Shown: piece by piece, positions 9,101-64,000 of the stretch
How the letters are laid out: every line of letters begins with the position of its first letter
How positions within the stretch are numbered: the first letter of the stretch is position 1
Assembly: GCA_044892525.1 (NCBI GenBank)
Contig: CM097887.1
Coordinates: 61,194,001-61,258,000, forward strand
DNA length: 64,000 bases
Direction: 5' to 3'
Source of the DNA: Schmidtea polychroa
Lineage: Eukaryota
Notes under the pieces: model-generated
What the model saw: the letters and a program-made list of their open reading frames with translations, nothing else
Told to the model about the DNA's origin: nothing
Databases searched by the model: none
Program-made: the position numbers and the translations under genes

Positions 9101-9321
9101 GACAACAAATTAATGCAATATAGTATATGTAGTTATAAAGAAGAAAATGATTTATCTCTTCTCTATTCTCCTAAAATTCCAAAGTCATGCCCAAAGTTAG
9201 TTTAATATTATAATTTTGAGTATTCTTATTTAACACATGACAATTTTTTGATTTATAGAAAATTTAGTGGGTGTGAACAGGTCCTGGTTTTATTATCAAC
9301 GACTTTATTTAAGAAAAGGTG

Positions 9322-9850
9322 AGTAGAGGGATAGCGACCCACTAAACCAACGGCCCTCTGAAACAAAGACATACCCCCCTGCCACTAAGATCTTTTTTTA
9401 AGGTCATTGTAACAACGATCATGACTCATCGGATGACTCATTCAAGGACCTTTTGTTTGATATGTATATTATTAGGTTTTAAATTTTTTGAACCTTGGAC
9501 CCTTCAAAGATATGACCTTCAAACTAACCTTCAAAAGTCCTTTTGAATGATATATAACTTGTAAGGTTTGAGAAACATTTAAGTTTGGACACCCCTTGAA
9601 GGTTGAGGACACACCATACACCTTCATACTCATCTTTAAAATCGTTCAATAAAATCCATTGGCGGGAACTCTGAAAATTCAAATATTAAATTTTAAAATT
9701 TTTAGAATGACTAATCGCATGACTCATGTGACCCTGAGAATGACGAGTAGTAGAACTCTTTTGACTTTGGAATATAGTTTCGTCTAATAACATAAACAAT
9801 ATATTATGAATGACTTTTATGACTCTTAGGACTTTTATGAATGATATATT
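9322..9850 (+). mobile_element. Remnant of a Polinton/Maverick-like terminal region related to 62.85-64 kb
   Basis: Starts AGTAGAG, followed by a short GC-rich block. Contains ATGACTCAT x3, TGACCTT and ATCGTTCAATAA..TTGGCGGGAACTCTG..TTAAATTTTAAAAT, which closely matches 63190-63240. Confidence 0.55.
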
Positions 9851-20765: not shown

Positions 20766-21353
20766 ATGCAACAGTGCGTTAAACGTCTTGGGGTAACCAG
20801 ACGTAGACGAGCGAATAGAAATTTTACTAATATGTTCTCTTAATATCTCAGGCATGCCTACTATTAGCCCAGAAGACAGCCACGCGAATCCTTCGGCATC
20901 TACATCCAGACTCAACCTAAACCACGCGGAGGTAGACGAAGTCGTCAGATTGACCAGGAGGAAGAACTCACTCGCCTGAGGTCCAGGTGGATCTGGTATA
21001 AGATTCATGATTGGACCTACCAGAATGTGGTCCCGGTGATCCCGAAGGTGGAGCCGTATATCAACTATACTTCATTGGCTTTGAGCGACGCATTCGACGA
21101 TGCGAAGGAGGCGGTGGACCGGTTGCATCGGCTCGAAACATCAGTCCTGGCCGGCGAGCTGGAAGACATCGACGGCTACGCCCGAGCCCAATGCCATCCA
21201 AAGCGGACCGCAGCTCTTCGCCGGGGGCTGGAATGCCCAAGAAGTCCTCGACGGGGATCGGAACAGTTGAGAAAACGCGGGCGCCCACGAAAAACCGCCA
21301 GCTCAGCCAAGGAGATTACCGAACTGAAAACTAGCGCTGTACGACATCCCTAA
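20766..21353 (+). pseudogene. Orphan AT-hook protein gene (cassette gene C), probably spliced, with one early stop
   Basis: Frame open from ~20868 to 21353: PRRQPRESFGIYIQTQPKPRGGRRSRQIDQEEELTRLRSRWIWYKIHDWTYQNVVPVIPKVEPY...QLRKRGRPRKTASS. Candidate intron GTGCGT (20774) or GTAACC (20793) ... TACTAAT ... CTCAG (20851). Sequence is GC-rich. Confidence 0.55.
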
Positions 21354-21362
21354 CATCTGTGT

Positions 21363-21641
21363 TGTGACTGAAGTCTTGTGATAAAAATAATTATCATGTA
21401 ATGACTCCGTTATTAATGTACCTTGCGATATTGTGTACTGGGTTAGATCACTTTGACCCAGAATTAAAATAATATTCGTTATGTCTTAGTAGTTTGTATT
21501 TAGTTAAATGTTTGGTTGGGTTTTGGTTGTCGATATTAATTTAATTGTGTGTATTGCTTGATTCTTGGTAATGTTCTTAGCGTTAACTATTATTATTATC
21601 GACTACAATTTTCCGTAACATTGACAGCCGATAGGGTTTGA
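21363..21641 (+). mobile_element. Putative 5' LTR (21363-21620) plus degenerate tRNA-Ser-type PBS
   Basis: Begins TGTGACTGAA and ends TTCCGTAACA (imperfect inverted termini). It is followed by TTGACAGCCGATAGGGTTTGA, similar to the tRNA-Ser PBS TGGCGCAGTCGGTAGGAT of 17.6/297-type Gypsy elements. No second LTR seen. Confidence 0.45.
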
Positions 21642-21769
21642 TAAGATTCATAGAACTCGGTTTTGGTGCGCGTAGGGGAGGGCTGCGACGAGGAGATTAC
21701 ATTCATTTAGTATTAATAACGTGCGTCACTCAATGCTGAGGTGAAAATTTCTAATGTTGTTTATTTTAG

Positions 21770-22238
21770 TGTTAAAACTCCTGGAAGAAATGCGAGCAGA
21801 TAGAGAGAATAGAGAGAATACCGGGCCAAGCTGGCACGAATCAAGGCCCATTGTCGGAACTTCGAGAGTACCTGGTTCCCGCCAGTAGAGATGAAAAAGC
21901 GGATGAAACTGATCACTCAACTGCAACTCCAGAGTGCCCAAGATCAGGTTGAGTTGCGGGCCCTCCGCCTTAGAGTGAAGGAGCTGGAGATCAAAGTTCT
22001 CCAACAGGATCTCGACCGAGATGTCATATCCAAAGTCCGGCCCATGAGTGAGCTGCTCCACAACCCAAAGGAGCGCGCATCACTGAAAGTCCCGAGGAAG
22101 AAGATCCGACCGGGTAAAGCGGCGCGGGCGAGAATGAGACAAGCCAGCCAAGCCCAATTAACACATCATTCTGCGGTGTCAGAGCCTACTCCGAAGGAAT
22201 CATCCACGACACTAAAATTTTGGAATGTGTTCTCCTAA
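21770..22238 (+). pseudogene. Orphan coiled-coil/basic protein gene (cassette gene D) with E-x-TWF-x-P motif
   Basis: Candidate intron 21721-21769 (GTGCGT..CTAAT..TTTTAG). A frameshift occurs near 21810 (AGAGAGAAT duplication), then an open frame EYRAKLARIKAHCRNFESTWFPPVEMKKRMKLITQLQ...KELEIKVLQQDLDRD...RKKIRPGKAARARMR to TAA 22238. AATAAA follows the stop. Confidence 0.6.
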
Positions 22239-22477
22239 TAAATATTTATTGGTGTATTCATATCTGGGCATTTCGATTTTACCATAACGTTGATTATCAT
22301 AACGGGGACTAAAAGAAACCGGACATAGGCCTTCTATCGGCAGTCCGTGAACCCCAGTGGGTGCTAGACAATTATAGTATGCTAGGCATGCTCACTTTTT
22401 GCTAGTACCCAAACCCTTGATACAGTACCAACGTTGATTACTCAACGGGTATCAAGTGGTCAGCTATAAATTGTATC

Positions 22478-35564: not shown

Positions 35565-35799
35565 TTGACACGCAAAAAACCATTATTTGAAAGGAATAAA
35601 ATTAATTTATGCTTAAAATGACACGCAAAAGAGCAATAATTAATGCCGTCATTTTTGATGTAACATTAAAATGCATACGAAAATACTATAATAAATAAAT
35701 ATTTTAAACCATTTCAACACAATCTAGAATTGAAAACTCTTTCCAAACGTTGCTAGTTTTAATTGTATTTGTAGAAGTGTCTATTTTATCTAGAATTAA

Positions 35800-37036
35800 T
35801 TGAAATGATTTACGAATGTAAATTGATTTAAAATTTCCTATGATTCCTTGATCCAAAGATTGTAATTGCGAAGTTGTATTGGGTGGTAAAGTGGATATTT
35901 CAACATTTGGATAACTTAAATCTCAGAAATTGGAAGGTGCATTATCCAAAATCAGTAAAAATTTGAATGCTAAGTTCTTATTGTTCAGTTAGTTTTCTAC
36001 TTCCGGAATAAAACATTGTTGGAACCAATCCATGCTTTTTTGTTGGCCCACCAATGCACAGGAAGTCCGGTTTTGTTAAAACCTTTCATCGATCGTGAAT
36101 TTAGTGAACGATTAATAAATAATGGCTTAGTCATCAAATCTCCAGATGCATCACTCCAAAAAATTAAGTTATGCGATCTTTAGCATTCTTAAAACCAGGT
36201 GCTATTTTTTCATTTTTTGAAATAAACGTCCTAAAGGGAATTTATTTTTACCATAAACCGGTTTCATCAGACAAATAGCCCTTTTCTTGAATCTATTTCT
36301 GGAGTTCTTCCGGATACGTTTTAGCTGCATCTTTTTCTCTATGCATCATCGGTGAATTCTTCATTTTCTTCATTTTGTTCTACCCACGCTATTACAGCAT
36401 GTTCCATTTTTCCATTACACTTGCTGTCGGACGAGCCATAATTTTATTAAGTACAGATGATCCGGACGCTACAGAATTTCTGATCTTTTCTTCTGCATTT
36501 TTGATGGATCTTTCGTCTTGAGTCGTTTAAATTAAAATATCTGACGACATCTGCTGTCTTTTCTTGATTGTTTAGTTTATCCAAAATTTGTATTTTTGGT
36601 TTAGAGTGAGATAAACTTTCGTTTCTTAATATTCAACATTTTGAAGGCTACAGTAAATGTTTCAATTAATTTAGATTTCAAAAAATTGAATTTACTTACT
36701 GCCCTGCATAATAGAAAAGTTAATTTAATGATTTTATATAATGTGATATCAAAATTATACCAAAAATTACATATGGACGTATAGTTATTATATTACCTAT
36801 TTAATAATTTAATCTTACAGATATTCACTGTAAAATTAAAATAATTTTTGTGATCTGTTTTGTTCTATGATTGGAAACAAACTAAAATGTACATCACAAA
36901 CGATCGAGAACGATAACGTCTCGTGAAAAATAAATTTGTTTGCTGAATTGGGGATTCCTGTTACGATGTATAAAAATCGCGTTGTAAGAAAAAGAAATCC
37001 TGTTACAAGAGTGACGCGTTATAGGAGGATTTACTA
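35800..37036 (-). mobile_element. Tigger/pogo transposon remnant with DDE_1-type transposase pseudogene
   Basis: Minus strand across frameshifts: DETGLW...P.RTFISKNEKIAPGFKNAKDRIT...KPLF....R..KG...LPVHW.ANKKAW...FKFLLILDNAPS...LPPNTTSQLQSLDQGI. N-terminal MEKMEHAVIAWV. Terminal TAGTAAATCCTCCTATAACGCG at ~37013-37036. Confidence 0.85.
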
Positions 37037-40817: not shown

Positions 40818-41301
40818 CAGGGGTTGTGATCACATTTTGACATTCTTTCAATCAATTTTAACAAATATTATTACTATGAAAATTTTACTATATTATATTT
40901 AAAATTAATAAATATGTAAGCAAAAACTTAATTTTTATTCATCATAAATCTCCTCTTTCTCAAACATTTTGGGATAAATTCAAAAAAATGTCTGTAATGA
41001 TTTCATTCAATGTGATAGCGCAATTGTCATCAATCCAATCAAGCACTTCTCTTTTATGAGATTCAGAAAGAGAATGCCGGCGTACACCACCTTTTTGGCT
41101 CCTAGTGTTTTGATAATAAAATGAACCGTTGTCCTTTTGAACCTCATAATTCTTGCAATCGTAGCTACGCTATATCCATCGATATATGACTCGATAATCC
41201 TTCTTCTATCATCATCTGTAATATGATCATTAACCATTAATAGGCTGAATATATTTGTTAAAATTGATTGAAAGAATGTCAAAATGTGATGATAACTCCT
41301 G
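40818..41301 (-). mobile_element. Tc1/IS630-like deletion derivative with ~50-bp TIRs and N-terminal HTH remnant
   Basis: TA|CAGGGGTTGTGATCACATTTTGACATTCTTTCAATCAATTTTAACAAAT, with the inverted copy ending at 41301|TA. Internal MVNDHITDDDRRRIIESYIDGYSVATIARIMRFKRTTVHFIIK. Confidence 0.88.
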
Positions 41302-41771
41302 TATCTTTCATTTCATTATTTTAACCTTTTGACTAGATACAAGCCTTAAAAACAATGTTAAATATATGCCAAAATATGCCAAGAAGAAAATTATTAAATT
41401 AAACATATTTTGCTTATCCTTTAGTCGTGTTCTCTATCTATGCACATGACGTGATTAAAAAAGAATAATATTCCTTTCTAGTACCACTGATTAAGAGAAG
41501 CATAAGGCGTTTTGTGTCGTTTACCATAAGGCTGCCAAAGTAGTGGTACTGGAAAGTACTTTGATCAGAATTTAGTATTAATATTTTTTAATTATTTAAA
41601 CATTTTTGTTTTGATAAATAATTAAAAAGCAATTATTTATTATGAATATATTTAATGTTACACAGACTTGACGCAAAAAGAGAAATTAACAGATTTGTTT
41701 TATACATTTCAATATTATTAAATTGTTAAAACAAAACTTTAAAAAGTTTCAAAATATATATTATTTAAATA

Positions 41772-42897
41772 CAGTGGCGTCACTAGGGTTGGTGTCACTC
41801 CTTTACGACACCTCAGAGACCTCCGAGCCCGCCAGTGTCAAATAATGGAAACGTACAGAATCCTTAGTTACGTTTATAAATATAGTTCCTATATTTACAA
41901 AGGCAATAGAAGAAAAAATTAATTTAAGGTCGGTTAGTAAAAGACTGTAAGAAGTTAATTTTATGTCATATTAAATCTTGACTAAACCAGGAATTTTCTT
42001 TCCTGGCCTTTAGAGCTGCAAACTTGTTAATTACTTCATCGAAACAACTCCTTTTACCAAATCACTTTCAATTGATAATATTGCAAGATCAGAAAGCCTT
42101 GACTGTCTCATGGTAGATCGCAAATAGTTTTTTATAAACATTAGCTTTGAAAAACTCCTCTCACATGAAGCCACAGACACACAGATCGTAAGAAATAATT
42201 GTAGGCTCAATGAGAGATGGGAGATATTCTAGGAAAACCCATTCAGCTGTGAATTTCAAAACTTCAAGTATTGACCAGTCTTTGGCTTCTTTGAGATCAA
42301 TCTCTGCTGCATTCAGGTGCCTTATAGCCTTGATATTTCTAATAAAAGCTTTTCTTCTGATAACTCATCATAGAACGTGGTCAATTTTGGAATAGACACC
42401 AGTAACTCTTCTTCAGTGGCAGATATCAAACTCTTGGTTTGAACAACCTCATCCTTGAAAGTTCTTGATATGATCTGGCAGAGTTAGTCCAGTGTCTCTA
42501 GTCTTCTCACCTGTCATCCTCTTCTTGAACCTGGGTCTGCTCTCTACTAACATTCCATATTGGTCTGATTTTCAAAGTGCTTGTCCAATTGCCTGCTCCA
42601 CAAGATGATTTCGCTGCTCGTATATAAAAAGTCTAAGCGTCTCTAGCTTTATCACCACCTTGTCAAGAGTTACGCCCTTAGTCTGAAGATAAGATTAAGA
42701 TTAACTTCTTCAAGTAAATCACACCAAAAGAAGTAGTAGCACTGGGATAAAAACGCCGAAGCGGGCCTCCGGGAAAAGTGCGCGTCATCGCCGCCATTCT
42801 AATTTCATGGAGCGTCATAGAATCATAGACAGTGATATTTTGCATTTATATGTCACCCCTTGTGATAAAGTCACGCGGTGTGATCCGCACCCCCGTA
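41772..42897 (-). mobile_element. hAT-Tip100 (ZMYM1-like) internally deleted element; other end probably in the gap
   Basis: TIR CAGTGGCGTCACTAGGG at 41772. The minus strand at ~41990-42250 encodes LSLSLQLFLTICVSVASCERSFSKLM.IKNYLRSTM.QSRLSDLAILSIESDL (hAT dimerization domain). Subterminal GGTGTGATCCGCACCCC lies just before the N-gap. Confidence 0.88.
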
Positions 42898-54859: not shown

Positions 54860-56310
54860 TTAGGACAAAAATTTTAGCCAACAACATTTATTCATTGTTT
54901 TCATCATTTCATTCTGTAGTAATTTCAAGACTAACTTGGACTTGAAATTTGATTTCGTAAAAGATTTGAAAACATAGGCCAAATACATAACTACTCTACT
55001 GAAAACCAAGCAGGCACCGCATTCGGCAAATGCAACATTGAATGAAAGAGTCGCATCGTAAATTAATCCTACAATTGGAGGTCCAATTAGTATGAAAAAT
55101 GTCACGTCTAATTTATCCTCACCAAATATGTCCACCAATACCACAGATGACAAAGTAACAAATGCACCGGACATCATTCCATAAAAGAAAGTGTAACCAA
55201 TCATTAAAATAAACATTTTTATTCCCCAACTAACAAGCAATGCTAATTCACTCAACACAACCGTTGCGTTGTAGATATGAAATCATTTTAAGCGTTTCAT
55301 CGTTGCTAAATATCCGAAACCCACTCTACCGAATCGGTTTCCAATTCCGATTGATAAAATGAGAAAGCTTCCTTTACTGTTACTGATCCCATTCTGAATT
55401 GCTCTATCCTTTGCAAACATATAAGGCGCATTGAACGCGATGTTTGAAAATACATTTGAAATCAGAAATAAAATGAATACGGAATTTTTCAACATTGCAA
55501 TATATGATAGTAAGGAAAACGTATTCAAGGTTGTCTTTAAGTTTTTCATCACTCTCTTCAACATTTACATTTGACATTTGTTTCGATAATAATGACAACT
55601 CGATATTTTCTTTTTTCTCATTTATGTTGTCTTTTGTGGCATTATTTTCAGGCTGTGAATTGTTACTTTCAAAGTTACAGTAAGAAGCTGAACAAAGTGC
55701 TAAAATCAGTATCATTAAACCAGTTATTAACATTGCTTGTTGCCAGCCACCTTTTGTTAACAAAAACTCAATATACGGACTGAAAATGAAAGTTCCGAAT
55801 CCTGATCCACAAACTGCGATCCCAATTGCAAATGAGCGCTTCTTATCAAACCACATGTTTACAATTAGAATCGAAGGTAAATAGATCAAACGAAATCCGA
55901 TTCCACAAACTACAGAAGAACTCAAAATCAGAAACCACATTTCACTATAGGAATATGGCGCTGCGAGTCCGACAGTAGGTATAATAGTTCCGGCTATTGG
56001 AATTGACTTGTAACTAAATCTTCGACATAAGTAACTCGTGATGGGAGAAACGAGGAAGATCACAGCTACTAATATTGACCCCATCCAACCCACTGTATTT
56101 CTGGATATTTTATAATGTTTGATATATTCTGTTGTCAAAACCCCATAAGATTAAACGATTCCATCACTGATCAAATGAGAAATGAAACTCGCAAGTACAA
56201 TTACCCATCCCCATCTTTGATCTTTTATGTACTGTTTTGTTTTTGATCCACTTCCGGATGCGTCCTTATGATCCTTATCAACATTCTCTTCGACATTTTG
56301 ATTATTTATT
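54860..56310 (-). pseudogene. slc16a: Monocarboxylate transporter (SLC16/MCT, MFS) pseudogene, intronless
   Basis: WGWVIVLASF..H.I.DG, YLCRRFSYK, YLPSILIVNMWFDKKRSFAIGIAVCGSGFGTFIFSP, GRVGFGYL, GPPIVGLIYD. Disruptions: premature TAA at 56151-56153, a frameshift near 55540, in-frame TGA at 55283-55285 and an apparent deletion in the late TM region. Confidence 0.9.
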
Positions 56311-56929
56311 GTCGTGTTTTATTAATTAAATGGAATATTTTAACAAAATTCTCAGATTGGTAGGCTGTAAATTTGACGAAGTTAAAGAATATATTAATTT
56401 GTTTTATTAAGGCAAACGAAATGAAATTGATAACCATGAATATTGATGATATCCAGAAGTATAAAAAAGTAGGATTTCCTGATTCATTTGAAGAAAGAGA
56501 ATGCACCTGGCTCCCTTAAGAAAGAATAAATTTTGTTATCTACAAATCAGATTTAACATAAAATAGTTGGGACACAATAATTATGATCTGTGACTAGAAT
56601 GGAANNNNNNNNNNNNNNNNNNNNNNNNNNNNNNNNNNNNNNNNNNNNNNNNNNNNNNNNNNNNNNNNNNNNNNNNNNNNNNNNNNNNNNNNNNNNNNNN
56701 NNNNNNNNNNNNNNNNNNNNNNNNNNNNNNNNNNNNNNNNNNACGGCAGCAATAGGGGGGGGGGGGGGGGTAAAAAATGTTGCAAACTTTTGATTGCATA
56801 ACTTTTTCCGTAGACATTTTTTGATTACACAATTGTTGCCGTAATGCCCAATGTTTTCTGGGATTTTAAATACAAAATTTTTTTTTTTTTTTTTTTTTTT
56901 TTGTCAATAAACAAGCCAAGGATAAATAT

Positions 56930-57882
56930 TATTTGGGTGGGTCTCCTTGGTCCTGAGAATTTCAATAGAAAAAGGTAGTCTTCAATAAAAAAGCATGGAT
57001 TTTTCACACTATAGTGAGGGGATCTTCTTGGTCATGAGAATTTCAATAGAAAAGGTGGTTTACATTAAAAAACGCATAGTAAATTTTTAAAATAAAGCAA
57101 ATTATGGGTCTAAAATTTAAAAATAAAGTAAATGATGGGTCTAAAAATTTAAGTAAATCAAGGTTCAGATTTATTTTTGAAATAAAGTAAATTATGGTCT
57201 AAATAAGTAAATTATGGGCTAAGATTTTTCAATTAAAGTAAATAATGGTTCTAAAAAATTAAATTACAGTAAATTATGGTCCAAATTTTTAAATTAAAGT
57301 AAATTATGGTTCTTAAAAATTAAATTAAAGTAAATTATGGTCAAAATTTTTGAATTACAGTCCAAAAATTTAAATTAAAGTAAATTATGATCCAAATTTT
57401 TAAATTAAAGTAAATAATGGTTCTAAAAAATTAAATTAAAGTAAATAATGGTCCAAATATTTTAAATTACAGTAAATAATGGTTCTAAAAATTAAATTAC
57501 AGTAAATAATGGTCAAAAATTTTAAAATTAAAGTAAATTATGGTTCTAAAAATTAAATTAAAGTTAATTAAGGTCCAAATTTTAAAATTAAATAATCAAT
57601 GGTAAAAAAAAATTTAAATTAAAGTTAAATAAGTAAATTAAAGTAATAATTTTTAAATAAGTAAATTAAAGTAATGTAATAAGTAAATTAAAGTAAGATT
57701 TTTAAATTTATTAACAAAAATAGAAGGTGTTTGAGAATTGAAATTTTTTAATGGAAATTTTAATGAATTATTTTTTAAGTAATTTTTAATAGAAATTTTT
57801 ATGAATAATTTTCAATGGTAATTTTTAATGGAAATTTTAATAGAATAATTTTTAAGATAATTTTTAATGAAAATTTTTATGA

Positions 57883-58075: not shown

Positions 58076-58119
58076 TTACCAAATAACAAATGTAAAGATA
58101 TAAAATTTATTCAATAAAA

Positions 58120-61100
58120 TTAGTCCTCATCGGACAAAATAACGTCATCGATATCGATGTCATCTTCTCCAAAATCTTCATTTAATTCTTCCTCATCTTC
58201 TCCAACATTTTCTGAAACATTTTCTGCAACAATTTCTCCAACATTTTCTCCAATATTTAATTCACTTAATCTTACATGCCCATATGCAAGACTAGTATTT
58301 TTCCCCACCCAAACCCTTTTGTCATCTTTGTTAGTTAGTGCTATTTTTGTGTTTTTAATTGTAAAAATTTGATGATTTTTGCTTGTTATTTTAGTCTGAG
58401 GAACCGAAAAAATCTGGTTAGTGTTATAACAATCCAGGTATGACTGATGTTTTATGTCACTACCTTTCAATGTTACACCTTTAGCCTTTTTTGTTTCCTC
58501 ATCACTCAACAAGCTATAACATTTAGGTCTAAGAAAAACCCACTCCTTATATTTAAGACCTTTATTCTCGTCTTTGAACTTTCCAATGACTGAATCAAGG
58601 TTCTTACTATATAAGGAATGACAACTATTGTAACTGGAAGTATCCAATAAATTATCTCGAACCATTGCAGGTAAAAGAACCTCAAGTTTGCAGTTAATGA
58701 CTTCGAGGAAAAAAGAATCTGTATCACCTGCAACGATATTAATTTTACAATTAAACTCATTGCGAAATGATTCCAGATCCTTATATTGCAATTCATACAT
58801 TCTAAGTTTAGATAGATCAAGTACAGATTGACCAATGTAACTCGGTCTATCTAAACATATAGAATCTGAATTCAATAGTGCTGCAATTAAATTATCTGCT
58901 ATTTTAATAGATTTTTTAAAAGTCGGTTTTGACGAATATTTAACTAATTTACCGGCAGTTGTACAAAGACGAAGATTCATTCTTCTCTTTAAATTTTCAA
59001 CTGTTTTGCCGTATAAACTATTATTTAGCAATTTATAATAATTTTTATCTAAGCTATTTACGCTTTTTGATCTTAATTCGGTATTTGTATCTATATATTT
59101 TTTAAAAATTGGTGATTGCTTAAATCTTACACCCCTATTTACACGTGTTACTTTAACACCAAGTTCCAAATATAATTTTAATAATCTCCAATGAATAACA
59201 TAATTAGATTTTGGAAGATGAGTTAATAATAATTTTTCAACCTTAGACCCAGCAGGTTTCATTTTTTCAGCAGCTACAGGGAAATCATCCAACTTATCAT
59301 GAAGCTCAGAAGGAATTACAAGATCAACTTCAAGTGTGTATCCATAAGACAAAGATTCAAGATTTAAATTCCTACATTCATCCATTATTTTATCAAATCC
59401 ATCAAGAACCCAACAAAATTCGCCACAAGGTAATGATTGACTTAAAGCCCAGCCATAAAGATTATTAATATCTATATATAGTAACTCGGTGTTCTCGTCG
59501 GTTTTTACGTAATGCTTATTCACAAAAGTAAGACCGCCTCTTATTCCACCCTCATAAAAGCTAAACATTTCGTTTTCAGTTATGAGTTCAATTGGTTCAT
59601 TTAAAGACATTAATGCAGAAGACCAAGACATGCCTGGAATTCCGAAATAATTCAATGGTTCCAATCTATTGTGAGCAATGGATTTCAACCGAAACTGATG
59701 AAAGAAATCAGCCAAAAGAAAACAATCAAGTTTTAGGTAGATCATCATATAATCTAATAAAGTTACGCAATTAGTTTCTACCCAAATCTCCTGAGCTTTT
59801 TCATACTCAAGCTCAGTGACACCCTCCCAGATTGGTGGTAATTCATAAGTAGTTTGGAGAATATCTAAAGAAGTGGCGAAATTATAAGGGAAGATTCCTT
59901 TTTCACTTACTATGGTGCCAGAAAAAGCAGAATTAGTAAAAGGCAAAGAATTCAAAGTTTTGACTGCTTTAGCCAAAGAATCATTGACAAATTGATACGA
60001 ATCAATGAATCTTAGGCTAATTTTACCTAAATGAGCAATCAAAGATATAAATTTTTCCGTAGTTATTGGGATGCACCCTAAATTCCAATTTTTAAATTTA
60101 TTTAATCCATATTTAAGTATATGGTGCATATCGTATCCCTTCAAGTTGTGAAATACAATAGGCAAAATTTTATTTATTTTTCTATTTACGTTACATGTGC
60201 TACAAGCTGCACCCAAGTATTTCCCCATAAAATGATCGTGATCTCTAACAGGATCCACGATAGATTTCAAACAAAGATAACAATCCGTTGAATTAATGAA
60301 TTGTTGTTGCTCAATTTTCGTTAATTTAATCATTGGTTTCCTACCCATTTTATAATAAAAAGGAAGAACCTTATTTAATGCTATATCCTCTATAGCACTT
60401 AAAAAACTCTCGACGCAATCTAAACCTATGAACTGCTGATAAGATTTAGATCCGTCAAAGTTATTTACTAGTAAAAGACCAGCAGATATTGGCATGTGTC
60501 GCTGAAAATGATCATTATCAGAAGGTAAAATAGCCTCAAAATCGGCATAAACTACAAAAGGAGGAGTTACTGTTTTCGACCAGTCAGTAAACTGTAAGAA
60601 TTTATTTTGAGGGAAAGTATAAAGAGTTGTTCCTAATTGATTACGTTTGCATAATATTTCATGTTTTTCTAGTGCGTTTCTATTATTAAACCCATTCAAA
60701 CACCGATGGCACCATAATGAACGTATGCGTGTAGGACAAGTAGTGTTGATACCACAATTCAATAACCTATTTAAATTGCTTATAGCAACGTAATGGAAAT
60801 TGTTCCCTTTATTTAATAATAGTAAATTAATTACAGTTCCATTTAAAACTTTGGAACGATGTATAATGTCTAAATGTGGGTGTTTTAAAACGTAATTATC
60901 TATTAATTGTTTGTTATTGTCATAAGAAAAAACGTTAATTATTAAACCAAGATTTTTGGCCTCGAATTTTCTAATATCTTTTAATTTCATGGGTAAGTCC
61001 AATGGATTATATATTAATTCAGATAAATTATAACTGGATGTCCTATTTCTAGCATAACTACTAACCTCATCATATTTTAAAATAGCTAAAATGCTATATA

Positions 61101-61731
61101 AAAAACATGAATCATCGGTGTTTTTTATATTAATTAAACAATATTTATTTTTTAGATAAGTAGGTAGTTCAATGAAACTCCTACCACTTAATCTACTTAG
61201 CCTACTTATCTTTGTTATGGTGAAGTGAATTTCTGTTATTTTTTTTATGATCCAGCTACTTCCTAACTCTGTGATATTACTTATTTTCTCGTTTAGTTCC
61301 CTAATGCCTTCGTCAAAAAATGATGCAGTTAAAGGCTTTGCATAATTTGAGATATTATTAACCTTTATTTCCCCGTCTTTTTCAAATTCGATTGTTATTC
61401 CGAATTGAATTTTGACGGAGCCTAATTCGTTAATAATATCTCGTAATTTTTTTATTAGTTGTTCAGGAAATATTATTTCTTTTATATTTAAGTCGCTTGT
61501 ATTTAAGCTTAATATTTGATGGGTACCTCTTAGATCTTTTTGTATTATTGGAACATTTCCACCTATTTGTATTATATTTAATCCATCCCAAGAGTCAAGG
61601 GAAATATTATCTAATCCGACCTGGGATTCAACAACCAATCCATCATGGGATTCGACAACCAATCCATCATTGGATTCCACAAAAGGCAATCCGACCTGGG
61701 ATTCAAAAGAAGAAGTATCTAATTTAATTTT
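58120..61731 (-). CDS. polB: Protein-primed family B DNA polymerase of Polinton/Maverick/adintovirus type, with endonuclease VII-like His-Cys domain; apparently intact
   Basis: Uninterrupted frame of ~1200 codons. N-terminal SFIELPTYLKNK..INIKN.D..CFLYSIL. Exonuclease motifs VYADFE, FHNLKGYD, YLKLDC. CYLC...VRDHDH..G.YLGAAC..CN. Polymerase motifs YIDINNLY, KLLNNSLYGK, GDTDS, GKFKDE, KAKGV. Acidic C-terminal tail. The true start is uncertain because there is no ATG for ~230 codons. Confidence 0.95.
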   Translation of the reverse strand, partial: KIKLDTSSFESQVGLPFVESNDGLVVESHDGLVVESQVGLDNISLDSWDGLNIIQIGGNVPIIQKDLRGTHQILSLNTSDLNIKEIIFPEQLIKKLRDIINELGSVKIQFGITIEFEKDGEIKVNNISNYAKPLTASFFDEGIRELNEKISNITELGSSWIIKKITEIHFTITKISRLSRLSGRSFIELPTYLKNKYCLINIKNTDDSCFLYSILAILKYDEVSSYARNRTSSYNLSELIYNPLDLPMKLKDIRKFEAKNLGLIINVFSYDNNKQLIDNYVLKHPHLDIIHRSKVLNGTVINLLLLNKGNNFHYVAISNLNRLLNCGINTTCPTRIRSLWCHRCLNGFNNRNALEKHEILCKRNQLGTTLYTFPQNKFLQFTDWSKTVTPPFVVYADFEAILPSDNDHFQRHMPISAGLLLVNNFDGSKSYQQFIGLDCVESFLSAIEDIALNKVLPFYYKMGRKPMIKLTKIEQQQFINSTDCYLCLKSIVDPVRDHDHFMGKYLGAACSTCNVNRKINKILPIVFHNLKGYDMHHILKYGLNKFKNWNLGCIPITTEKFISLIAHLGKISLRFIDSYQFVNDSLAKAVKTLNSLPFTNSAFSGTIVSEKGIFPYNFATSLDILQTTYELPPIWEGVTELEYEKAQEIWVETNCVTLLDYMMIYLKLDCFLLADFFHQFRLKSIAHNRLEPLNYFGIPGMSWSSALMSLNEPIELITENEMFSFYEGGIRGGLTFVNKHYVKTDENTELLYIDINNLYGWALSQSLPCGEFCWVLDGFDKIMDECRNLNLESLSYGYTLEVDLVIPSELHDKLDDFPVAAEKMKPAGSKVEKLLLTHLPKSNYVIHWRLLKLYLELGVKVTRVNRGVRFKQSPIFKKYIDTNTELRSKSVNSLDKNYYKLLNNSLYGKTVENLKRRMNLRLCTTAGKLVKYSSKPTFKKSIKIADNLIAALLNSDSICLDRPSYIGQSVLDLSKLRMYELQYKDLESFRNEFNCKINIVAGDTDSFFLEVINCKLEVLLPAMVRDNLLDTSSYNSCHSLYSKNLDSVIGKFKDENKGLKYKEWVFLRPKCYSLLSDEETKKAKGVTLKGSDIKHQSYLDCYNTNQIFSVPQTKITSKNHQIFTIKNTKIALTNKDDKRVWVGKNTSLAYGHVRLSELNIGENVGEIVAENVSENVGEDEEELNEDFGEDDIDIDDVILSDED

Positions 61732-61974
61732 TTAATTTTTATTATTTTTTTCTATAGTTGAGGGTCTTTTAAAAACACTATCTTTTTTAAAATTAAACCT
61801 ATCTAAATGATTTTTATGTTTATTATAAAAAACGCTATATGTTACGGGGTCACTAGTCTTACATACGGGACATATTTTAAAACACATTTTGACGCTAAAG
61901 TTGACTTATTTAACATTTTCATAATAATTTAATAAAAATAATGTGATGAACCCACAAAGTAATATCATTTTTCA

Positions 61975-62310
61975 TCAAATTGCAAAACAGTAATAACGTT
62001 TTCATAAAATTGTAACAAAGTAATAACATATTTCAGATAAATTTTCAACAGTTGTAAAATATTTAAGCAAATTGTAACAAGATTAGAAAATATTACAACA
62101 AAGTAGTAACATATTTCAGAAAATTTCAACAAATTTGTAAAATATTTATCAAATTGTAACTAAAATAATAAAAATATTGCAACAAAGTAATAAAATAATA
62201 ATGGTAATTAAGACAAATCAATACATTATTTCGAAGACGGACAACAAATTAAAAAGAATATTGTAACTAAAATAATAAAAATATTGCAACAAAGTAATAA
62301 AATAATACAA
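61975..62310. repeat. Degenerate tandem repeats (TTGTAACAAAGTAATAA-type)
   Basis: Recurrent TTGTAAC/TTGCAACAAAGTAATAA units. A ~47-bp block is duplicated at ~62154 and ~62261. Confidence 0.8.
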
Positions 62311-62326
62311 CATTTTAAACTCTAGA

Positions 62327-62800
62327 TCAATCCATTTTATAGAAAATTAAATTTTATCTATATAATATATGAATAAATATCCAAGGAAATTACGTTAACG
62401 TATAATAAATACAAATTTATCGTAAAAACATGTGTGTATTACACACAAAACAAGATACATAATTTCTAATCAATCCATTTTATAGAAAATTAAATTTTAT
62501 CTATATATTATATGAATAAAATCCTAAGAAAATTACGTTAACTGTATGAAAAATACAAATTTATCATAAAAACATGTGTGTATTACACACAACATACGAG
62601 ACATAATTTTTAATCAAGCTATTTTATAGAAAATTAAATTTTATCTATATAATATATGAATAAAAATCCAAGAAAATTACGTTAACCGCGCGAAAAACTA
62701 CAAATTTATTGTAAAAACATGTGTGCATTACACACAAAGCATCAAACTGAAATTGTAATTGCGCCATGTTGTAGAGAATTAAATTCTGCCTATACATTGT
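62327..62800. repeat. Three (plus one partial) 143-144-bp tandem repeats containing palindromes
   Basis: Units start at 62327, 62470 and 62614. Each has TACGTTAAC(GTA) and TGTGTG(T/C)ATTACACACA. Confidence 0.9.
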
Positions 62801-63039
62801 TACACTTAAATCTCGATCAGACATGTGAAAAGAGACATAAAAGAGAAAGAACAGTAGAGTAGTATGATTGGGGCCATCCAGACCAGGTCACCGCCAGGCC
62901 ACATATACCCTCTCCCCCCCCGTGTGTAAAATAATGTTAATAATAATATTTATACATCAGTAGATAGATCTTGCACTAAGCTTCAAAATAAGCTATCCAA
63001 TAATAAATTCGGATAATGGGAACGATAACTTTGGGGCAA

Positions 63040-64000
63040 ACGAAAACCAGGTCACCGCTGGACCACTAATAATTATATGACCTTGAAAATGATTTTTGGT
63101 TAAATGTTAATAACTTTGTTAATATTAATGATGATGATACCTTCCATGGATCAATCGAAAGGTCTTAGACCGAGCGTTAAAATGAGGTATCGTTTAATAA
63201 TATTTGTTGGCGGGAACTCTGTACATTTAAATTTTAAAATATGACCTTGAAAAATTAAATGATCACTTAATTAAAACAAAAAATTAAATTAAAAAATGAC
63301 CTTGAAAAAATAAATGACCTTGAAAATTAAATGACCTTGAAAAAATAAATGACCTTGAAAAAATAAATGACCTTGGAAATAATAAATGACCTTGGGAATG
63401 ACCTTGAAAAAATAAATGACCTTTTAAAAAATAAATGACCTTGAAAAAATAAATGACCTTGAAAATAATAAATGACCTTGAAAAAATAAATGACCTTGAA
63501 AATAATAAATGACCTTGACCTTTTATTAAAAATTTGACCTTGACCTTGATGAGTCATCGTTCTAAAAATATGATGAGACAACGAATGAGTCATTGTCTTT
63601 GTTCTAAAAATGTGATGAGTCATCGTATGATAAAAATCTATATCTCATTAGAAAGTTCTTGCACAGAGCTTTAAAATAAGGTATCGATCAATATAATATG
63701 TTGGCGGGAACATTTATCTTTGGGATGAAAAAAAGTAGGAGCCCGCTGGGCCAATTAATAATATTTTGACAAATAATAATAATTTAACTTTGAAAAGATG
63801 GTGGTCATTAAATGTTAATAACATTAAAACTATTAAAGATATATAAGATAACTATAGCTCATTCGAAAGGTCTTGGACTGAGCTTTAAGATGAGGTATCG
63901 TTCAATAAAATTTGTTAACGAGAACATTAATTTTTGGGATGAAAAAAAGTGTGAGCCCGCCAGGCCAATTAATAATATTTTGGAAAATAATAATAATTTA
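63040..64000. promoter_or_regulatory. Motif-dense repeat block: ~17 TGACCTT(G) copies, 3 ATGAGTCAT and 2 TTGGCGGGAA within ~200-bp degenerate modules
   Basis: ~18-bp tandem AAAAATAAATGACCTTG at 63290-63548. TGAGTCA at 63550, 63586 and 63616. TTGGCGGGAA at 63207 and 63701. The module CGAAAGGTCTT.GAC.GAGC..TAA.ATGAGGTATCG recurs. Regulatory function is inferred. Confidence 0.5.

Follow-up and report, generated by a model that had tools for sequence, protein, structure and literature searches.

Does the repeat-rich non-coding DNA upstream of a Polinton-type DNA polymerase gene serve its element as a regulatory region, or did its host-factor motifs accumulate by coincidence and duplication? The locus lies at the end of the window, i.e., the whole 64,000-nucleotide stretch of DNA that was analysed. 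A preliminary description had proposed that positions 63040-64000 form an enhancer-like array that couples activation of a Polinton to host proliferation, wounding or nuclear-receptor signals. The polymerase gene (polB), the motif block and the DNA around them were resolved into the following features (strand refers to the window).

57050..57710, plus: 31-bp AT-rich tandem array, downstream of polB
58120..61887, minus: protein-primed DNA polymerase B of Polinton type, carrying an endonuclease VII-like insert
61954..62302, plus: nested AT-rich repeats of 23-83 bp, immediately upstream of polB
62257..62832, plus: 144-bp tandem repeat, ~3-4 copies, between array and polB
62853..62925, plus: AGTAG/AGTAGT, then a GC-rich patch (partial module tail); candidate Polinton-type end or internal relic
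62945..63098, plus: module 0, a ~214-bp module copy that has degenerated (6/10 letters at the E2F position)
63078..63086, plus: lone NR5A-type site closing module 0
63100..63240, plus: module 1 with GGTATCGTT and an intact TTGGCGGGAA (63207-63216)
63242..63250, plus: lone NR5A-type site after module 1
63294..63549, plus: 18-bp minisatellite, ~13 units followed by two abutting half-site pairs
63549..63623, plus: three ATGAGTCAT (AP-1/TRE) nonamers and one degenerate copy, in short direct repeats
63638..63851, plus: module 2 with GGTATCGAT and an intact TTGGCGGGAA (63701-63710)
63852..64000, plus: module 3, with a degenerate E2F site and 86% identity to module 2; truncated by the window edge

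Identification of the motifs as NR5A-type, AP-1 and E2F was supported by our analysis; the consensus names used here (YCAAGGYCR, TNAAGGTCA, NBRE, AP-1, E2F and CCAAT) are those which we take to apply. Sixteen NR5A-type sites in 63040-64000 fit YCAAGGYCR, 14 of them exact copies of TGACCTTGA and two of TGACCTTGG. Together with two further TGACCTTTT units they make 18 half-sites, all on the plus strand, and the earlier count of ~17 nuclear-receptor sites was a fair one. On the polB strand the array sites read TCAAGGTCA. The minisatellite contains 14 of the NR5A-type sites plus two AAAGGTCA-type variants, separated by A-tract spacers. Receptor sites within the array are spaced 17-19 nt apart, and TRF assigned a period of 18 and 12.7 copies to 63294-63518, in agreement with the ~18-bp spacing reported before. 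The three AP-1 sites were also confirmed, as nonamers ATGAGTCAT starting at 63549, 63585 and 63615. GGTATCG(A/T)T occurs three times (63186, 63680 and 63894); however, the E2F decamer TTGGCGGGAA that had been described as ending these modules is intact in only two of them (63207 and 63701), and the third is degenerate, with 7/10 decamer letters matching. Modules do follow the AP-1 sites, as had been stated, but one E2F module precedes the array.

The repeats are nested. Four copies of the ~214-bp module lie near 62950, 63146, 63638 and 63852, and the repeat block as a whole begins near 62866 and extends past the window end. Site numbers in the block arise from nested tandem duplication, without an independent origin for each site. 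No hairpin or long palindrome was found in the array, and no ORF with homology was found over the block. Reading the module as a tRNA-like or structured RNA was rejected (no ARAGORN genes, no Rfam gathering hits); the best Rfam E-value in 61900-64000 was 0.12, and no B-box consensus was found.

To compare the counts with chance, as had been suggested, 5,000 dinucleotide shuffles of 63040-64000 were made. The 16 nuclear-receptor sites compare with a mean of 0.03 (maximum 2), the three AP-1 sites with 0.04 and the two E2F sites with 0.006; none of the 5,000 shuffles attained the observed count for any class. The counts are far above chance, but because the block is a nest of duplications this test overstates the case. 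We therefore reduced the block to one copy per repeat unit (278 nt; 20,000 shuffles). The receptor core then appeared in 1.0% of shuffles, AP-1 in 1.6% and E2F in 0.03%, and all three classes together in 0/20,000. Since the motifs were picked post hoc from a large vocabulary, the de-duplicated result is only suggestive. Elsewhere, TGACCTTG[AG] was absent from the 54,090 non-N bases of 1-56740. These findings indicate that the motif block is real and non-random within Polinton-associated non-coding DNA.

A rival reading is a neutral minisatellite: slippage in a Polinton end prone to repeats would have amplified the 18-bp and 214-bp units, and the motif matches would have come about by coincidence and duplication. 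At least five motif-free tandem arrays flank polB (periods of 31, 83, 144, 24 and 12-39 bp), which agrees with such a history. Conservation within the block favours neither side clearly: the 18-bp units show one change in 96 core positions, and 6 of 12 units vary outside the core, a pattern that A-run slippage can explain; none of nine listed family variants fell inside motifs (p = 0.14; from 40 of 774 variant rows). The E2F site was lost in 2 of 4 tandem modules, which fits the neutral reading. On the other side, the three motif classes persist after de-duplication, and the four variant units still match what we take to be the monomeric receptor consensus (two YCAAGGYCR and two AAAGGTCA). A further comparison came from a diverged copy that lies 53 kb from the block.

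9312..9760, plus: diverged relic of the regulatory region

The relic contains an intact E2F decamer (9659), three perfect AP-1 nonamers and two AAGGTCA half-sites; CAAGGTCA was not found in it. It matched module 1 with 82% identity over 50 nt (blastn, E=4e-7; nhmmer, E=3.5e-5 and 1.9e-4). The E2F decamer is conserved at 10/10 positions while the 15 nt on either side share 40-80% identity with modules 1 and 2, but this conservation is partly circular because the relic was detected through the 50 bp that contain the E2F site. The AP-1 nonamers lie outside the blastn match, in reversed orientation and at positions other than those in the block; 0.007 were expected, and 0/10,000 shuffles reached the observed number. 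Only seven overlapping windows, all over the relic, showed an AP-1 or E2F signal among 501 sliding windows. Plain local alignment of the whole relic was no better than that of AT-rich controls (score 71; control median 63, maximum 114, n=83). The preliminary description had made its case depend on retention of motifs in other copies. In the relic this holds for AP-1 and E2F, but NR5A-grade sites are absent, a loss that suits the neutral minisatellite, whereas retention of the reversed and repositioned AP-1 nonamers with the E2F decamer speaks against it. On balance, we regard neutral amplification as an unlikely account of the block.

It had also been proposed that dispersed copies could seed host enhancers. 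This proposal has no support here because no host gene was identified near the relic; 64 other ORFs of the window gave only transposase fragments. Separately, 9312-9850 includes two 12-bp-spaced AP-1-like pairs ~290 bp apart and AGTAGTAG at 9746, followed by further degenerate ATGACT repeats.

The Polinton association of the block was confirmed through polB. In the minus-strand frame 58120-61731, PF03175 matched with E=2.8e-31 (residues from 60600 down), and the endonuclease VII match was weak. Homologues numbered 5,631 among 8,000 candidates, with a best identity of 63%, and a search of PDB with polB gave no hits. Homologues align in a single frame to the probable start at 61887, across a stop at 61732-61734. 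This copy is evidently broken near its N-terminus, because the in-frame stop interrupts the homologous frame. The stop separates a short CxxC-bearing N-terminal leader from the 1,203-codon remainder; a spliced mini-exon leader was considered and is unneeded, as the one-frame alignment of homologues reaches ~61887. A relative with 49% identity (L004) carries an rve integrase, an A32-like ATPase and TBP. TBP occupies L004:11333-11806 (PF00352, E=1.6e-18), and the ORF after it (L004:13477-13962) is by eye ubiquitin-conjugating enzyme-like. No capsid, integrase or ATPase gene was found between polB and an assembly gap at 56605-56742, and the only integrase match in the window is a gypsy ORF at 1.5-2 kb. 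In tblastn with ORFs of L004, L005, L022, L038 and L054, only polB and the gypsy integrase matched the window. The polB copy is bounded by the gap and the window end, and missing genes may lie beyond either. Downstream of polB there are AT-rich arrays, the gap and then a monocarboxylate transporter gene of the host.

Contigs from 4 of 24 listed sequencing runs (including X1, X2, X5 and X11) were placed on 58100-64000, and all 30/30 bins of this region were covered in all four runs. X1 contributed 76,966 contigs and X5 13,987, with 774 variant rows. Depth in X1 and X5 keeps the same order of magnitude from polB through the intervening repeats to the array, although run depth does not equal copy number. 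polB and the block thus belong to a high-copy dispersed repeat family. Judged from the sequence, the locus belongs to the Polinton/Maverick group in respect of its pPolB and its multi-copy family. Joints at 63780-63585, 63999-63585 and 63142-63852 point to variation in module number among copies, although contigs placed on the wrong repeat can yield such joints too. Greater X11 depth over the array is not evidence of transcription. X2, labelled as a different organism from X1 and X5, gave near-exact pieces of the window copy at low depth, which was far lower over the non-coding parts of 58100-64000. Abundance of the family may differ strongly between the labelled organisms.

Two anatomies are possible. 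The block sits 1.1-2.1 kb upstream of polB, beyond the 83-bp and 144-bp tandem repeats, and could form the opening 1.1 kb of a separate Polinton-type element with its left end at AGTAGT (62858). Such an element would have inserted head-to-head upstream of polB, and the array would then exert no control over the neighbouring gene. AGTAGT at 62858 starts 8 nt from the onset of module homology, and (AGT)2 is the commonest end motif of Mavericks (PMC8097293). The weak homology of the relic likewise begins at AGTAG (9322), and an AGTAG...ATACCC layout, a pattern picked post hoc, occurs at three places in the window. X11 depth rises ~tenfold across 62858, from 25-129 to 499-1952, which agrees with a boundary as far as depth, which is not copy number, can indicate one; in X1 and X5 the change is less than twofold. 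Against a separate element, AGTAGT occurs 26 times on the plus strand, neither a partner right end nor a target-site duplication for 62858 was found in the window, and neither the 24 loose ends listed (out of 4,315) nor the 15 joints listed (out of 420) include one at 62852-62858. In addition, contigs that carry a variant at 62823 continue up to 50 letters past that position. A separate element as anatomy has a little less than an even chance in our judgement, is compatible with any functional reading, and as a full account of the array, unrelated to polB, is unlikely. We lean towards the array travelling with polB, which would cover an old end that has since become fixed within the family. 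Another Polinton-type left-end-like stretch lies at 2724-2980 (AGTAGTAG, then a GC-rich patch with 16/20-bp tandem repeats), for which no partner was found. A match to AGTAGAGTAG at 55000 falls within the transporter coding frame and was taken as chance.

The receptor that could read the 18-bp units was considered from the core sequence. In Schistosoma mansoni, FTZ-F1 bound 8/8 oligonucleotides containing CAAGGTCA and 0/4 AAGGTCA oligonucleotides lacking the C (PMC8673669, S4 Table). Of the 18 same-strand sites here, 16 have the bound form; the two half-sites of the relic have unbound forms. A match does not guarantee occupancy, as a consensus site upstream of foxA was unoccupied by SmFTZ-F1 in vivo (PMC8673669). 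The preliminary description had named an FTZ-F1/SF-1/ERR element. The core is indeed the one bound by flatworm FTZ-F1, but ERR is unlikely to be the reader if the host is a triclad: excerpts of PMC8363021 report ERR missing from S. mediterranea and parasitic flatworms and FTZ-F1 retained by most flatworms, so that NR5 would be the reader in such a host. The known SmFTZ-F1 element shares this core, and its bound forms TTTCAAGGTCAG, TCCAAGGTCATT and a two-half-site direct repeat all occur here. It differs in that its sites occur singly, in the promoters of a parasitic flatworm's own genes. The 18-bp units would probably bind a host NR5A protein in vitro.

Two other roles for the block were weighed. 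Strict strand polarity, near-regular spacing and a possible terminus nearby resemble the sub-terminal sites of hAT or CACTA elements, and the units could serve an element-encoded protein (an integrase complex or viral regulator), with the likeness to host motifs incidental. We consider this highly improbable, as the core is the very form that flatworm NR5A discriminates in EMSA, and none of 54 related polB loci (with short flanks) has the array. The other role is a replication or packaging signal, at which host factors would aid protein-primed initiation or packaging instead of transcription. Adenoviruses offer analogues in the NFI/Oct-1 sites of the ITR and the A repeats of the packaging domain. 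The position upstream of polB corresponds to the element end in relatives L004, L005 and L022, and a candidate end motif marks the left edge of the block. Polinton TIRs extend to ~1.5 kb in excerpts of PMC8097293 and PMC10748475, and baculovirus hrs double as origins and enhancers in excerpts of PMC13513840. The array itself has no hairpin or long palindrome of the kind that would speak for this role. AP-1, E2F and nuclear-receptor sites are a typical enhancer mix, which we counted against replication or packaging. As the sole function it is improbable; it is compatible with an enhancer role, and the two are not exclusive.

We also searched for such arrays in other contigs. In related metagenome contigs polB lies near one end and the other genes converge on it. 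More than one TGACCTTG was found in 0/54 related metagenome polB loci, most of which extend only a few hundred bases beyond the gene, and neither blastn nor nhmmer matched the array region to the related loci compared. No polB relatives were found in viral contigs. Eight pattern matches in viral contigs were rejected since each overlaps an open frame, in most cases one that codes for collagen-like or other repeats, and one match to the E2F-module pattern was inside a phage ORF. Stricter motif patterns gave no match in viral contigs or in prokaryote genome contigs. Other repeats were observed upstream of polB in related loci: GATTGG (CCAAT reversed) with a TATA box in L009:1-140 and L016:1-110, and GGGAAACTGCT with one GGCGGGAA in L002:270-330. 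Motif-bearing promoter repeats may be general in the polB clade.

At the present locus, the 144-bp units (62257-62832) each carry TTACGTTAAC and a near-palindromic ACATGTGTG...CACACA stretch, and TATAAA occurs on the polB strand within these repeats at 62341, 62484 and 62628. The 144-bp repeat is thus a candidate repeated core promoter for polB. The 31-bp array at 57050-57710 has two degenerate AGGTYC half-sites in the orientation opposite to the upstream array; its reading as an inverted partner of the 18-bp array was rejected, with no nhmmer or blastn support.

Among these readings, we put at about one half the chance that the block is a selected regulatory region of a Polinton element, i.e., a platform for host factors in its terminal region. 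It looks like a viral enhancer in its clustered host-factor motifs, tandem repeats and non-coding DNA. Under this regulatory reading, the block would be non-coding DNA at or near the terminus of a high-copy family of Polinton/Maverick type. A monomeric nuclear receptor of NR5A/FTZ-F1 type would occupy the 18-bp units, and AP-1 and E2F factors the flanking repeats. Slippage and unequal exchange would adjust the number of sites, and A/T-tract spacers would weaken nucleosomes. The block would then act as the early enhancer of the element, with polB, 1.1-2.1 kb away, as its target; if 62858 were an element end, the target would instead be the genes of the neighbouring element beyond the window. 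That the block drives polB of the family is possible but doubtful.

A coupling of activation specifically to wounding, one of the inputs suggested by the preliminary description, seems improbable. The polB-strand sequence of the region is T-rich, and excerpts of PMC10558129 describe planarian constitutive and stem-cell promoters as T-rich. The same excerpts describe planarian stem-cell genes as independent of specific transcription factors, and an E2F-driven link to stem cells is for this reason unsupported. In the planarian chromatin literature, NR5A, FTZ, E2F and AP-1 are absent from the main text of PMC12660999, AP-1 and E2F from the main text of PMC9849279 and PMC10558129, and Polinton and Maverick from the main text of 10.1101/2023.12.22.572568. 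A broader proposal is that ends of animal Polintons carry a built-in immediate-early switch, a tunable NR5A array flanked by AP-1 and E2F sites. We consider this generalization unlikely. If true, the switch would tie Polinton reactivation to the developmental, injury and cell-cycle state of the host, and a family of very high copy number would both sequester NR5A genome-wide and supply ready-made enhancers.

The rest of the window holds features of other kinds. The monocarboxylate transporter (MFS_1; 54860-56320, minus strand) has 83% identity to protein P0121, and its named matches are from animals (32-41% identity), which makes the host an animal. At 585-2520 lies a gypsy-type RNase H/integrase ORF, after which a probable LTR begins near 2207. 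Positions 20868-22240 are GC-rich (35-46%) with several 110-160-codon frames and no Pfam match, and are probably a fragment of another mobile element. Transposase fragments occur at 35707-35922 (DDE_1), 41010-41312 (Tc1-like HTH) and 42034-42228 (hAT).

Known systems share parts of this design. The closest functional likeness is to baculovirus hrs, which in excerpts of PMC13513840 also combine tandem repeat units with clusters of host bZIP (CRE/TRE) motifs, there in a DNA virus of invertebrates, serve as origins, and show enhancer strength correlated with the number of CRE/TRE motifs. However, hrs are scattered around the genome and contain 30-bp palindromes to which viral IE1 binds, whereas the block has no such palindrome, its dominant site is a nuclear-receptor monomer element, and its enhancer activity is a prediction. 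Polinton/Maverick TIRs likewise are non-coding DNA beside pPolB, with a possible (AGT)2 end motif here, and the block falls within the TIR sizes given in excerpts of PMC8097293 (46-1,447 bp) and PMC10748475 (100-1,500 bp). Those excerpts mention no host-factor arrays in TIRs, and the window differs from a complete element in having no second arm, target-site duplication, nearby integrase or capsid gene. Mouse SINE B1 is another dispersed mobile element with NR5A motifs; 84.8% of 2-cell NR5A2 peaks contained B1 (excerpts of PMC10709309). In B1, however, the motif lies in a short retroelement and binding is demonstrated, while the block has 16 predicted sites tandemly amplified in a virus-like DNA element.

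The HCMV major immediate-early enhancer and the adenovirus ITR/E2 promoter are built of short repeats that carry host-factor sites, AP-1, nuclear-receptor and E2F sites among them; these repeats initiate early viral transcription or replication and have been mapped experimentally. They differ from the block in that sequence and viruses are unrelated. The block is a member of neither the hr, the HCMV enhancer nor the B1 class. Among the papers listed in searches of the open-access full-text literature, as represented by titles and the starts of abstracts, none described a Polinton with an array of this kind. We know of no trigger for transcription or reactivation of integrated animal Polintons. 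Enhancers built of repeated host-factor sites are a well-known design in viruses and transposons. Set against these systems, the block names three candidate host inputs for Polinton activation and provides a short testable sequence; the gain would be a first concrete Polinton case of host-factor-site repeats rather than a new principle.
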